DNA of 64,000 bases from Lingula anatina (Eukaryota > Animalia > Brachiopoda). Positions within the stretch are counted from its first letter, which is position 1. Each line of letters begins with the position of its first letter. Below are positions 28,857-61,093 of the stretch, piece after piece. The DNA lies in contig CM120646.1 of the NCBI GenBank assembly GCA_051362555.1, positions 20,274,001 through 20,338,000 on the forward strand, given 5' to 3'. Made by a program: the position numbers and the translations under genes. The notes below the pieces were generated by a model. It did no database searches. It was not told the DNA's origin and was given only the letters and a program-made list of their open reading frames with translations.

Positions 28857-29519
28857 TTAGGCAAACGGAGTTTCGAATGTATCTTTTGCAAAATTTTCTT
28901 TCATTTCAAACTCATCCGGGTGCTGGCTGTTTCTGCGATCCACTTTGGCTGTTCGTTTTAGGATAAAGTTATAGATAATCATATCCAAAAGTTCAAATAA
29001 TGTGATGACGCTTGCGCCCAAAAGAAGACCCATTAATCCACCAATTTCACCTAAAACAGATACAGTGACAATACAGAGACCCTGGGAGTGTTGGATTGGG
29101 TTAAAAAAGCTGAGTTAAGAGGTAAGATACGAATCGTAAGAAAGATATTCAAATACATCATTTAAAATTTTCAGCTGGCCTGCTTTCTATTAAATGAAAT
29201 TGCCTACATTCCGCGTGAGATTTTGATGAAAAATTTATGGTGCAGTGTGTGGAAAAAGAGAAGACAAAATAAAGATGGCGCGCAACTCAACAAAATAAAG
29301 GCCAAGGTTGTATTGCACTCGTATCTTTTGTTATTCGTGCCTTGTCTATTTTAAACGAGTATATATGGGATTCAGTCCTAGAGATACGGACTCAGCCGAC
29401 TATTTCCGAAACAAATCCGGAACTTACTAAGTAATGACCCTTCGTTTATGTCTCGCATTTGCTCGATTCTTTGGTAGCTCAGCTGGGCAAAATAGACGTC
29501 CAGGCTGAGGAAATTATTT
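28857..29519 (-). CDS. Copy B exons 39-40: beta11-beta12, TM2 with GAS selectivity filter, short C-terminal tail
   Basis: [20 protein letters not shown]...[25 protein letters not shown], compared with ASIC1 [23 protein letters not shown]; TAA stop at 28857-28859. Confidence 0.95.
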
Positions 29520-31433
29520 CTGAAATCAACAATAGTCTAGATTCCAATAATTTCAATGTAATCATCGACCCGGTACCTTGCGACATGCCATGAATATAAT
29601 GGCAATAGTAGTTTACATATACCTGTTCTCATCTAGGGCAAATTTATGTAAATATTAACTGCATGTATTTATATCTGATTGGTGATCAAAGGAATCAGAG
29701 TGATATGCGCACATTTTTTACCATTTAAACAAACACTCCGGTTCTGCATTTTAACACCAAAATGTGTGCCACTTAAATGAAGTTAAAAGAAAAGTGGTTC
29801 GTTTAATTCACAAACACGTCAACTACAAGTTGGATGTTTGGATAGATTGGATTAGGATTAGAGATTCAAAATATTCTAGACATTGCAATTGATAATACAC
29901 CAGACCTACTTACGCCACAAATGTTGCGTCCAGTGAATTCCCCTTTAAATACATTTGCAGTCGCGTCTGAAACTCAGTAAAATATTGCAATAAGAGGCCG
30001 CGCTGGTCGCTGAGATCGGCACCTAGTTGCTTGGACATAGTCCGAACTGGTTCTAAGTAAGCTTCAACGTGTTCCTGAAGATAGCTGTCTACATATATAA
30101 AATTTTCTGCTGGAGGGGCGCCTGACGTGTTGCTTTGACCAAACAGATTGATGTCCGGAACGTACCGCTTCCATATCTCCATTGCCCACAACTGTCCTAA
30201 ACACGATCCTTTTCTTCCGGCAGCAGAGAAAAACGTATCAAACTGCTGACATTTCTCAGCAATGTTTTTGTAGGATTGCGCTACTTTTTCTTGAAGATCA
30301 TTAAGTTCTTTCGATTTTCGCCCCTCCAGCCCCTTTGCAACGTCATAAATTTTGTTAATGCTCTCCTTTGCATATGCGATTTCATCAGGGGTGGACATTG
30401 CGGCTATTTCAGTTTTGGTAATCTCTCCCGTCAGGTAGTGTGCCAGCATCATGTCAGTATGTGACCTGGCATGTGAAACTATAAGAAGAGAGTCGATATA
30501 CTCGTCAATTATCAATTTCGCACCCGAATATGAACTGGGGTTTACTAATTCCAAAGAAGATAAAGCGCTTAGCGTGGAATTGTACAGATTAAGACAACGC
30601 CCGAACATTTCAATCTCACTGACAAGATTTTTATCGTCCAAAACAATGTTAATATTCGACTTGTTTGAATGTTCTAGTGCATATTTGCATTTTTCCTCAA
30701 CATATACCCTTGATTGCATGCACGGAATGTTGTCAGAGCCGAAGAAAAAGTCGGGCAAGTCTCTAGCGTTCTTCTCGGCACTGGGTTCAAGAAACACAGA
30801 CGGAATGGTGTCAGAACCGAAGAAAAAGTCGGGCAAGTCTATTGCGTTCTTCTCGGCACTGGGTTCCAGAAACACAGACATGCTTTCGTTGTAAAGATTG
30901 TAGAAATTCTGAACTTCCACTTTTGCGTTCGATCTTTTGTCGTTAGAGAAGGCGTCTGAACCACCCAATAATATAAATAAGTTACCTGGCAAGTGCCCCA
31001 GAGCTTCTGTTAACTTTAGGACATAGGGGTGAACCTCGACGACGTACCGAAATCGGTATGGCGATACAAATTCGGTAATCAATCGGGCGTCTTTTCTATA
31101 CATATCAGTGAGATACCTTTTTGAATTTTCGATCCTTTGGGTAACATACTTGTGGTCGATGGGTACTTCTAATATATCGTGAAGCACACTTAGGAATTTG
31201 GTATAACTTTTGTTCAGCTCGTGCAGCAATTCGTAAACTTCGGTGAACCGCTCGGGGTCAACCCGGTGTGCTCCCTCTCTGGCGTTTAAGAATGTTTCAT
31301 TGAGAACAGAAATATTTCCACGGAGTACACGGTCGACGTTGATGTCGGAAATTTTTCCATATGATATTACAGGTTCGTAGAACGTGGTGATGCAAGGCTG
31401 GATACACTGAGCCTGTTTGTGTGTACGTTGCTC

Positions 31434-31464
<31 letters not shown>

Positions 31465-60288: not shown

Positions 60289-60325
<37 letters not shown>

Positions 60326-61093
60326 GAAGAAAAAAAAACGTCAGCCATATTTTTGCACGTCGAAATAGTCTATATTTTGTGTATTTTGCTCTGCAGGACA
60401 GAAATGTTTGTCGTACGCCGCGTTGACCCATGTCATGCTCTCTTTTTAGTTACAACTGCGACAATTTAGATAATATGAACAGAACAGTGTCTCTAAGTCA
60501 TATAAAGCTGATCATATTAGAAATCCACATTTATTTAACACCCGAAGGTCGCGTTTATTACCCTCTAATATTATAAGAGAATGTGGGAGTATGTTGGTTC
60601 GAAGTCCCAAGGAAATGCACGGCTAAAAATACATTCGTTGCATTGTTGCGTTACATTTGCACTGAACATAATGTAAACACTAAAACGTTTTCTTAAAAAT
60701 TTGTAGTGTTGTAAATGTAAAAATCTATAATGCCTGGACTATATTCTAATATCTTGGGCGGGTGTATAAAACAAACGTCGCTTACCTGCGGAGTGAATAG
60801 CGGGTCCTGAGCGTGATATACCGAACCCCATGGAAGGTCGTTTCCTGGGTGAAATCATACAGCAACCTTCTCCAACTTGGACCACCCTCCTCTCGTGCAT
60901 CTGGGAAAACGACAAAACTTTCCACTAATTGACCCGTTATACAACAACAACCTTTAACACCCCCTAACAAAACACTCCTGCATTAAATGCGCTTTACACT
61001 GTGGGCGTAAAACGAAAAATACATCTCAAGATGAGAATATTTTTCAAACATTTCTGGTAATCTTTATACGATATACTCACTATCGCCTGACAT
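28857..61093 (-). CDS. Copy B: complete 40-exon DEG/ENaC (ASIC-family) channel subunit with a PAN-MAM-kringle-LDLa insertion in the ectodomain, ~2793 aa
   Basis: Hand-spliced exons, all GT..AG and phase-compatible: 61081-61093, 60786-60900, 57406-57573, 56846-56931, 55720-55986, 55381-55518, 54983-55221, 54495-54579, 53863-54120, 53390-53491, 50154-50303, 49621-49998, 48710-48820, 48002-48208, 47211-47552, 45002-45154, 44380-44622, 43669-44034, 42967-43230, 42401-42511, 42052-42195, 41663-41823, 41089-41359, 40330-40593, 39971-40087, 39386-39643, 38811-38924, 38299-38409, 37127-37624, 35953-36066, 35510-35635, 34672-34741, 34261-34385, 33816-33898, 32946-33044, 32597-32765, 32227-32283, 29914-31432, 29428-29519, 28857-29050. 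The sum is 8382 nt, divisible by 3. It begins MSGDNAREEGG and ends ...TFETPFA*. Confidence 0.85.
29914..31432 (-). CDS. Copy B exon 38 (1519 nt): end of thumb ([14 protein letters not shown]) plus long helical knuckle-region insertion
   Basis: Extends the 439-aa ORF 29910..31229 upstream in frame to the acceptor tatag|; donor GC|gtaagt. Confidence 0.88.
31556..31688 (+). repeat. Minisatellite, ~33-34-bp unit x ~4
   Basis: ttttgaacgaacgggaatctgttttgttaaaa(t/c)a repeated head to tail without spacers. Confidence 0.9.
31724..32104. mobile_element. Second copy of the TTAA-type MITE at 16148-16534
   Basis: Shared blocks such as gacatgccaagggataaactgaatagatca and gcagaaaaatccgttcaaacatcattt. Confidence 0.7.
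32227..34741 (-). CDS. Copy B exons 32-37: DEG/ENaC palm, beta-ball and thumb
   Basis: [19 protein letters not shown]...[28 protein letters not shown]...[15 protein letters not shown]...GFTVAPG; PHGTC...[34 protein letters not shown]. Most of these small exons are absent from the ORF track or appear there in another frame. Confidence 0.92.
34928..35414. mobile_element. Shorter MITE related to the 8151-9821 element
   Basis: TA-CATTCTTGGTCAAAAAGGTTGTCCC ... TTTTGACCAAGGGTG-TA termini; internal similarity to the ~9370-9540 region. Confidence 0.65.
37763..37804. repeat. (TA)n microsatellite
   Basis: About 20 TA units. Confidence 0.95.
38954..39243. mobile_element. Small MITE in copy B intron 26
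   Basis: TATCCCGCACG..AAA / TTTTCGTGCGGGATA inverted termini; internal CTACTGC/GCAGTAG repeats. Confidence 0.6.
44380..44622 (-). CDS. Copy B exon 17: kringle 2, lying between the two halves of MAM4
   Basis: [12 protein letters not shown]...ACKPW...[16 protein letters not shown]...WDYCRNFC; phase 1-1 exon. Confidence 0.85.
49420..49528. mobile_element. ~110-bp MITE specific to copy B
   Basis: CCCAGCAAACAC ... GTGCTTGCTGGG termini; empty site in copy A at ~7592. Confidence 0.6.
50508..52795 (-). mobile_element. Degenerate non-LTR retrotransposon (LINE RT) in copy B intron 10
   Basis: Frameshifted ORFs with [35 protein letters not shown] and YKYLG. The 3' end has AATAAA plus a (TTA)n tail near 50510. 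Absent from copy A, whose flanks join directly near 10250-10280. Confidence 0.92.
55720..55986 (-). CDS. Copy B exon 5: PAN/apple domain
   Basis: CRDRFK...[27 protein letters not shown]...DYYDRIRC follows the PAN pattern C-x3-C...C-x-SF-x-Y...C. Confidence 0.85.
57406..57573 (-). CDS. Copy B exon 3: TM1 and FPAVTICN motif
   Basis: [57 protein letters not shown]. Confidence 0.95.
59466..59891 (+). mobile_element. 5'-truncated CR1/L2-type LINE 3' end with (ATT)n tail and 8-bp target-site duplication
   Basis: YVPSRNLRS...[17 protein letters not shown]...[18 protein letters not shown] repeated at 59458-59465 and 59892-59899; empty site in copy A near 19882. Confidence 0.85.
60786..60900 (-). 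CDS. Copy B exon 2: DEG/ENaC N-terminus with pre-TM1 HG motif
   Basis: [31 protein letters not shown] matches the family F..xT(T/S)xHG motif; bounded by cag| and |gtaag. Confidence 0.92.

Follow-up and report, generated by a model that had tools for sequence, protein, structure and literature searches.

A predicted DEG/ENaC channel subunit of Lingula anatina with a receptor-module array in its finger and a helical insert in its knuckle

A 64,000-nucleotide stretch of the Lingula anatina genome (contig CM120646.1, positions 20,274,001 to 20,338,000; here called the window) contains a 40-exon gene on the minus strand, running from 61093 to 28857, which is predicted to encode one subunit of the DEG/ENaC channel family. 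A loop of 19 PAN, MAM, kringle and LDLa modules is inserted in its finger domain, and a second insert, predicted to form a helical tower, in its knuckle. The combination of module-bearing finger and knuckle tower appears to be a new and so far undescribed architecture within the known DEG/ENaC family. An earlier sequence-only reading of this DNA had recognized the modules, but it overlooked the knuckle insert (exon 38) and a tandem paralog, and it treated the channel as a one-off where a family, with a second large insert, is now found.

Six-frame translation and base-level reading of the exons gave a coding sequence of 8,382 nt and a protein of 2,793 amino acids (aa) with a calculated mass of 315 kDa (Table 1). 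The sole stop codon is the terminal one, all 39 introns have GT-AG borders, and hydropathy identifies only two hydrophobic segments, aa 44–62 and aa 2737–2755, the two-transmembrane (TM) arrangement of DEG/ENaC subunits. The channel halves lie 21.2 kb apart, from the end of exon 4 at 56846 to the start of exon 31 at 35635, and the 26 exons between them (exons 5–30) contribute 1,822 aa. Indeed, a separation of ~21 kb, 26 intervening exons in frame with no stop or TM segment, an insertion of ~1820 aa and a protein of ~2800 aa had all been proposed from the sequence. Every intron that bounds a module is in phase 1, and phase-1 introns at module borders are the usual signature of exon shuffling. 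Splice-site scores at the two junctions that bridge channel and modules are ordinary (ranks 14, 7, 30 and 21 of 39). No plus-strand gene candidate was seen inside the channel gene among open reading frames (ORFs) of at least 95 aa, read by eye.

By every sequence and fold test applied, the protein is a DEG/ENaC and not a new protein class. Pfam, run on the database protein P0005 of this locus, recognizes ASC in three stretches with E 9e-68 and 229.8 bits against a cut-off of 23.6. The HG motif (aa 28–29), the post-TM1 motif FPAVTICN, the thumb cysteines and the GAS filter in TM2 are intact. The AlphaFold model of the C-terminal 897 aa has a mean pLDDT of 68, with most of the core at 80–95, and its predicted hand fold superposes on ASIC1 with Z 30.8 and an rmsd of 3.6 Å over 321 residues. 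The names of the finger and knuckle helices follow ASIC1 nomenclature. Both inserts were placed with a profile of 54 sequences aligned to chicken ASIC1 (E 8e-117): the module array enters after finger α1 and before α3, and the second insert, of ~470 aa, lies exactly between knuckle α6 and α7. ASIC1 and ASIC2 (PF00858; PDB 6AVE) are the best solved relatives of the core and share these motifs; unlike the Lingula protein, they carry neither the finger array nor the knuckle insert. The gating GRIP domain of ENaC lies between α1 and α2, and knuckle–finger contacts join neighboring ENaC subunits (Noreng et al., in the passages seen of PMC6197857). As judged from the alignment, the site of the module array corresponds to this α1–α2 position.

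Module profiles built here assign to the array one PAN, six MAM, five kringle and seven LDLa domains in the order PAN-MAM1-KR1-LA1-MAM2-LA2-MAM3-MAM4[KR2]-KR3-LA3-MAM5-KR4-LA4-KR5-LA5-MAM6-LA6-LA7. This matches exactly the order read earlier, including the nesting of kringle 2 within MAM4. The Pfam check proposed at the time, for ASC together with MAM, Kringle and LDLa in one protein, found all of them in P0005 (98.6% identical): six MAM, five kringle, seven LDLa and the three ASC stretches, and exon 5 alone passes the PAN_1 cut-off. An acidic D..D.SDE-type motif is kept in all seven LDLa modules, as read by eye, and the protein has 26 N-glycosylation sequons. A search of exons 5–30 for a signal peptide or TM segment found no hydrophobic segment. 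The subunit is about five times the usual size of a channel subunit, subunits of the family range over 1,350–2,800 aa, and a trimer of the Lingula protein would reach ~950 kDa and display 57 modules.

In the AlphaFold model of the C-terminal part, a long helical bundle replaces the knuckle loop; modeled alone, the insert is all-helical with a mean pLDDT of 64.5. It gave no Foldseek match at E ≤ 0.001 and no Pfam match better than E 0.05, and its best VIA-align match, Z 10.9, is among generic helical bundles and indicates no specific fold. An insert of >300 aa is present at this site in 56 of the 144 stored proteins in which both flanks could be placed, a count that includes redundant Lingula records and isoforms. 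The named sources are Haliotis, Pecten, Mytilus, Lineus, Tubulanus and Owenia (molluscs, nemerteans and annelids); P0231, of 957 aa, belongs to one such cluster and is encoded on a 3,791-base Logan contig. These channels of ~900–1,000 aa are the top core matches, and their inserts are mostly 430–560 aa long; unlike the Lingula protein they have a short finger and no modules, and the identity between inserts is only 9%–17%. One of them is automatically named "degenerin-like protein del-10." The knuckle insert thus appears to mark a wider, uncharacterized DEG/ENaC group and, given its occurrence in 56 of 144 proteins that include those of molluscs, nemerteans and annelids, the tower would be older and wider than the finger modules. 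Two Owenia proteins, P0007 and P0157, are N-terminally incomplete knuckle-tower channels that follow a Laminin_G_3-like domain and a Thr-rich stalk, and P0155, also N-terminally incomplete, is preceded by half a MAM domain; all three are probably further module-bearing members split by annotation. In Lingula, exon 38 carries a 78-bp tandem duplication at 30722–30879 (26 aa, in frame), which is absent from the paralog.

Searching 6,927 candidate proteins of 887–2,530 aa with exon 38 returned a single match, Lingula anatina XP_013407589.2 (P0001, 2,464 aa), annotated with MAM, LDLa, ASC and kringle domains. The same cluster of five proteins holds P0005, full-length at 2,738 aa, with 2,675 of 2,712 aligned residues identical to the model, and three RefSeq records that cut the channel gene into 183, 1,665 and 897 aa, the cuts falling inside the module array. 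The exon 4–PAN junction is within P0003 and the LDLa7–channel junction within P0004; the module-only middle record, P0002, starts mid-MAM and has no hydrophobic segment. The middle RefSeq fragment, XP_023929952.1, is labeled MAM and LDL-receptor class A domain-containing. Earlier expectation that annotation would split or mislabel the gene therefore holds for the RefSeq records, but not for P0005. Exon 16 is missing from P0001 and P0005 and present in P0002 and the paralog DNA.

The tandem paralog starts ~7.3 kb downstream of the stop of the first copy and continues beyond the left edge of the window, its 3′ half being known as the protein P0001 only. Most of its exons match XP_013407589.2 at ~100%; that record starts mid-MAM1 and omits the channel N-terminus and PAN, though both are present in the paralog DNA. 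Exons 2–22 are equal in length to those of the first copy (21/21), have AG..GT flanks and contain no stop, and the introns can be aligned at 70%–91%. Comparison of the copies gave a dN/dS of 0.12 for the channel part (122 codons) and of 0.36 for the modules (1,239 codons), with dS of ~0.13–0.15; judged by these codon comparisons, both copies are under purifying selection. Amino-acid and synonymous changes stand at 6:0 in PAN, 20:3 in MAM2 exon 12, 13:3 in kringle 2 and 5:11 in the channel exons, an unevenness that hints at diverging recognition surfaces or specificity, although the difference between channel and modules is not significant (p = 0.066).

Relatives outside Lingula were sought with the channel C-half of P0005 among 3,184 candidate proteins of 1,505–4,792 aa, which gave two matches, the paralog and A3Q56_01374 of Intoshia linei (P0006, 2,120 aa). 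HMMER with P0004 matched 4,008 proteins at E ≤ 0.001; 24 of the 150 listed were examined with Pfam, and the module profiles were applied to all 159 stored proteins. Among the matches listed, modules inside the channel were also found in Capitella teleta ELU13130.1 (P0025, 1,980 aa) and in P0132 (1,369 aa). A profile of the module-bearing proteins gave 69 matches and added P0160, P0161 and P0162, the last N-terminally cut and without PAN; 65 of the 69 were set aside as perlecan/LRP-type or other LDLa-repeat proteins, with at most 9% of the query covered. P0008, P0074, P0100 and P0101 looked insert-bearing by offset and were rejected, having only repeated ASC matches. P0132, P0160, P0161 and P0162 come from ENA/JGI assemblies, have 1,123–1,378 aa and four modules, and are probably uninterrupted ORFs, to judge from their source and start residues. 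Scans of metagenome contigs for their DNA found nothing, and P0132 has no usable match in the ESM Atlas.

In all aligned module-bearing proteins, the order after finger α1 is PAN, MAM, kringle, LDLa, with the channel resuming after the modules, apart from the missing PAN of the cut P0162. Each module of the four ENA/JGI proteins is recognized by profiles built from the Lingula, Capitella and Intoshia proteins, weakly for the LDLa of P0161 (2.9 bits, against at most 2.4 bits in 35 module-free controls) and the MAM of P0162. In profile–profile comparison the four correct module pairings reached a probability of 97% (E ~1e-11 to 1e-10), and none of the twelve incorrect pairings exceeded 1.2%. Intact HG and TM2 motifs occur in the Lingula and Capitella proteins and in the full-length members of the P0132 group. 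Module number runs from 4 (P0132 group) to 19 (Lingula) with a fixed α1-proximal PAN-MAM-kringle-LDLa core, the lineage-specific extra modules having been added through phase-1 exons. On these gene models the design with finger modules is shared by at least brachiopods and annelids and, since it recurs in the latter, is likely old. The databases label such channels "uncharacterized," "MAM and LDL-receptor class A domain-containing" or "CUB domain-containing." In Capitella P0025 a CUB domain (~715–990) apparently lies inside a MAM after its N-terminal part, like kringle 2 in MAM4. The TM1 region of Intoshia P0006 is damaged and its N-terminus (residues 1–80) probably mispredicted; these residues resemble what is presumably a Tc1-transposase fragment.

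That the exons form one polypeptide with a finger insert, as first proposed, agrees with the paralog, with database models across each bridging junction and with the colinear homologs, and exons 1–40 very probably belong to one mRNA. A start for a separate nested gene was sought in intron 4 of both copies. In the 480-bp intron of the paralog, no exon of ≥12 codons begins with ATG and runs to a phase-1 GT[AG] donor, and the 859-bp intron of the first copy has three weak candidates, none of them kept in the paralog. A nested gene is unlikely because the paralog and the annelid and other homologs keep the same fusion.

Characterized DEG/ENaCs have compact ectodomains, and the stimuli to which they respond are protons, small peptides, bile acids, proteolysis or force. 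FaNaC/WaNaC and MEC-4 match the profile more weakly than ASIC does (E 5e-70 and 3e-51 versus 8e-117) and are not known to carry MAM, kringle, PAN or LDLa modules or to have a shuffled receptor ectodomain as ligand or tether. They resemble the Lingula protein as invertebrate DEG/ENaCs gated by ligand (parts of PMC9234716) or by force with matrix partners (parts of PMC10148893). Vertebrate ENaC similarly has an extra gating domain, GRIP, in the finger after α1 (PMC6197857, same passages). GRIP is small, built of β strands and removed by proteases, whereas the Lingula insert strings together receptor modules that fold independently, and it shares no furin site with its homologs. MALRD-like proteins also alternate MAM and LDLa modules. 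In contrast to them, the Lingula array brings neither its own signal peptide nor its own single TM, includes PAN and kringles, and is embedded in a two-TM channel; membership of the MALRD type was rejected on the lack of a hydrophobic segment in P0002 and exons 5–30 and of a signal exon in paralog intron 4. A search of the full-text literature, including by accession, found no description of either insert (subscription journals and bioRxiv supplements are outside its coverage), and the wider knuckle-tower clade is also undescribed in the literature searched. Accessions of the family are absent from the supplementary files seen of PMC9234716 (one file) and PMC10507113 (11 of 15 files). The tree of PMC10507113 has several uncharacterized lophotrochozoan groups, and the passages seen name none of these proteins.

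The leading interpretation, to which we give a little less than an even chance, is that the subunit forms a cation channel and that its modules, on binding a macromolecule outside the cell, gate the pore through the finger. Binding by the LDLa/MAM/kringle array would depend on Ca2+, and its target would be a secreted protein or glycoprotein or one of mucus, gametes or matrix; once the PAN/MAM/kringle/LDLa loop had captured this large partner, pull on finger α1/α3 would open the pore, the movement reaching the gate by the finger–thumb route used by ENaC. Coupling would be the task of the α1-adjacent core and extra modules would add reach and avidity, which fits a module number of 4–19 around a fixed core. 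The current would be Na+-preferring and amiloride-sensitive. Capture by the finger loop is considered likeliest because a finger insert gates ENaC and an extracellular ligand gates FaNaC (PMC9234716, in the parts seen). More tentatively still, the module-bearing channels may constitute an ionotropic receptor family, responsive to proteins or matrix, that predates the brachiopod–annelid split and arose when exon shuffling placed an ectodomain of up to 19 modules in the finger of a DEG/ENaC that already had the tower. They would be the first DEG/ENaCs opened directly by a macromolecule by way of built-in binding modules, and would offer a natural system for testing the tether model. Should the modules indeed control opening, the binding of a protein or of matrix would be turned into a fast electrical signal by a new route, after which ligand-gated channels could be engineered; the four-module members (~1,350 aa) are small enough for expression.

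Several observations weigh against this interpretation. The linker from the last module to α3 is long and variable, a poor lever. Most knuckle-tower channels lack modules, so the core works without them and the modules need not gate. Joining exon 4 to exon 31 keeps the frame and would give 972 aa, so that transcripts without the modules may occur. Each of the homologs is a gene prediction, known as a protein model. In four of nine same-species RNA read runs compared with 41300–61250, a region that excludes the LDLa7–channel junction, no splice joint reached the threshold of 3 reads; coverage was at trace level, too thin at a depth of 0–1.2 in most exon-bearing bins (several intron-only bins had 0) to count for or against the gene model, and most matched reads were repeats at 90%–95% likeness. 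In a core-only tree of 68 rows and 292 columns (8 module-bearing, 43 long-knuckle and 3 intermediate proteins and a random 14 of 74 short-knuckle ones), the module-bearing proteins are split: Lingula, Capitella and Intoshia share a 10-row group (94/89), which also takes in two incomplete models from Owenia and four more rows, at least two of them with no finger insert, and P0132, P0160, P0161 and P0162 form a long-branched clade elsewhere. Forcing the eight module-bearing proteins together, with four N-terminally incomplete rows left free, cost 13.9 log-likelihood units, and such a clade is not rejected (p-AU 0.176). One gain of the cassette with later losses would account most simply for the common insertion site and module order.

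Unlikely, though it survives best among the alternatives, is a tethered mechanosensor, in which the modules would be permanently fixed to cuticle, glycocalyx or basement membrane and tower and loop would pass on force, with strain or flow as the stimulus in place of an arriving ligand. Tethering is the standing model for MEC-4 and for shear sensing by ENaC, with knuckle and palm glycans implicated (PMC10148893, in part), and the tolerance of 4–19 modules suits a length-tuned tether, as do a long helical element at the channel apex and the 26 sequons a mechanosensor in general. However, the core matches ASIC1/2, which are not known mechanosensors, far better than ENaC or FaNaC chains, and the likeness of the tower to talin/THATCH bundles (Z ~10–11) is in the range of generic helical bundles. 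If the modules are tethers, channel and tether would be joined in one chain, and the long-open DEG/ENaC tether model would become testable by deletion.

Somewhat less likely again, the modules may serve only to place the channel or gather it in clusters (by anchoring at apical, ciliary or synaptic sites, or by endocytic sorting of the MAM-LDLa kind); a small stimulus such as pH, ions or a peptide would then gate it as it would the module-free knuckle-tower channels, or the channel would be a leak. Relatives that have the tower and no modules are common in molluscs and nemerteans, which is consistent with this, as are the flexible linker before α3 and some degenerate-looking modules of the P0132 group, such as the LDLa of P0161; yet a pure anchor need not sit within the finger, and the α1-PAN-MAM-kringle-LDLa order is kept across phyla.

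Protease activation is improbable, and of the gating routes put forward in the earlier reading (ligand, tether or proteolysis) it is the least supported. The insert would in this case be a giant autoinhibitory equivalent of GRIP, at the same finger position, that captures a protease and is cut away, and MAM, kringle and LDLa are indeed typical of protease cascades (solved relatives are plasminogen, HGF and enteropeptidase). But the Lingula protein has only two R-x-[KR]-R sites, both within MAM folds, P0006, P0132, P0160, P0161 and P0162 have none, and P0025 has two unrelated ones. Conserved furin cleavage, and membership of the ENaC-type protease-gated channels, were rejected, since no furin-type site is common to the eight module-bearing proteins and the insert is not GRIP-like. 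Least probable of all is an artifact, either a MAM/LDLa gene nested on the same strand in a phase-1 intron of a 972-aa channel or two genes mis-joined: the phase-1 introns let exons 5–30 skip in frame, which leaves room for a nested gene at the level of sequence, and the three RefSeq records and the lack of an RNA junction point the same way, but intron 4 of neither copy has a convincing signal-peptide exon, the array has no TM or signal, and the same fusion occurs in independently annotated annelid genomes and in ENA/JGI proteins, one of which, of 1,346 aa, lies on an 8,781-base contig.

Table 1. Exons of the channel gene and its tandem paralog (positions in the window)
Feature	Position	Strand	Remarks
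Alternative upstream first exon	ends at 61162		used by database model P0005
Exon 1, start codon, phase-1 donor	61081..61093	-	13-nt exon and same donor kept in paralog at 21546-21534
Exon 2, cytoplasmic N-terminus, HG motif	60786..60900	-	
Exon 3, TM1, β1, post-TM1 FPAVTICN motif	57406..57573	-	
Exon 4, finger helix α1, phase-1 donor into module array	56846..56931	-	
Exon 5, PAN, 6 Cys	55720..55986	-	Pfam PAN_1 E 9.7e-7
Exons 6-8, MAM1	54495..55518 (55518-55381, 55221-54983, 54579-54495)	-	
Exon 9, kringle 1	53863..54120	-	
Exon 10, LDLa1	53390..53491	-	closes conserved PAN-MAM-KR-LDLa core
Exons 11-12, MAM2	49621..50303 (50303-50154, 49998-49621)	-	
Exon 13, LDLa2	48710..48820	-	
Exons 14-15, MAM3	47211..48208 (48208-48002, 47552-47211)	-	
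Exons 16-18, MAM4 with kringle 2	43669..45154	-	MAM4 N-part 45154-45002, kringle 2 44622-44380, MAM4 C-part 44034-43669
Exon 19, kringle 3	42967..43230	-	
Exon 20, LDLa3	42401..42511	-	
Exons 21-23, MAM5	41089..42195 (42195-42052, 41823-41663, 41359-41089)	-	
Exon 24, kringle 4	40330..40593	-	
Exon 25, LDLa4	39971..40087	-	
Exon 26, kringle 5	39386..39643	-	4 Cys, outer Cys pair missing
Exon 27, LDLa5	38811..38924	-	
Exons 28-29, MAM6 and LDLa6	37127..38409 (38409-38299, 37624-37127)	-	LDLa6 without first Cys
Exon 30, LDLa7, last module	35953..36066	-	phase-1 donor back to channel
Exon 31, 42-aa linker	35510..35635	-	31/42 identical between paralogs, least conserved part
Exons 32-37, finger α3, palm, β-ball, thumb	32227..34741 (34741-34672, 34385-34261, 33898-33816, 33044-32946, 32765-32597, 32283-32227)	-	
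Exon 38, thumb end, knuckle α6, insert before α7	29914..31432	-	1,519 bp; ~470-aa predicted helical-bundle insert
Exons 39-40, β12, TM2 with GAS filter, C-terminus, stop	28857..29519 (29519-29428, 29050-28857)	-	
Tandem paralog, exons 1-22, off left edge of window	290..21546	-	same exon lengths and order, canonical splice sites

Intron 10 of the channel gene contains a frame-broken LINE-type retroelement on the minus strand (50798–52801; Pfam RVT_1 E 1.1e-14), and another retroelement-like fragment lies on the plus strand at ~14253–15504, in intron 3 of the paralog. A short inverted-repeat element at 57631–57850, just upstream of exon 3, shows hundreds-fold RNA depth with loose ends and strand switches and is a dispersed repeat. 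On the minus strand, 1.8 kb upstream of the channel start, a 292-codon open frame (62925–63800), whose C-terminal half is coiled-coil and which has weak Pfam coiled-coil matches only, is likely the 3′ part of a neighboring gene.

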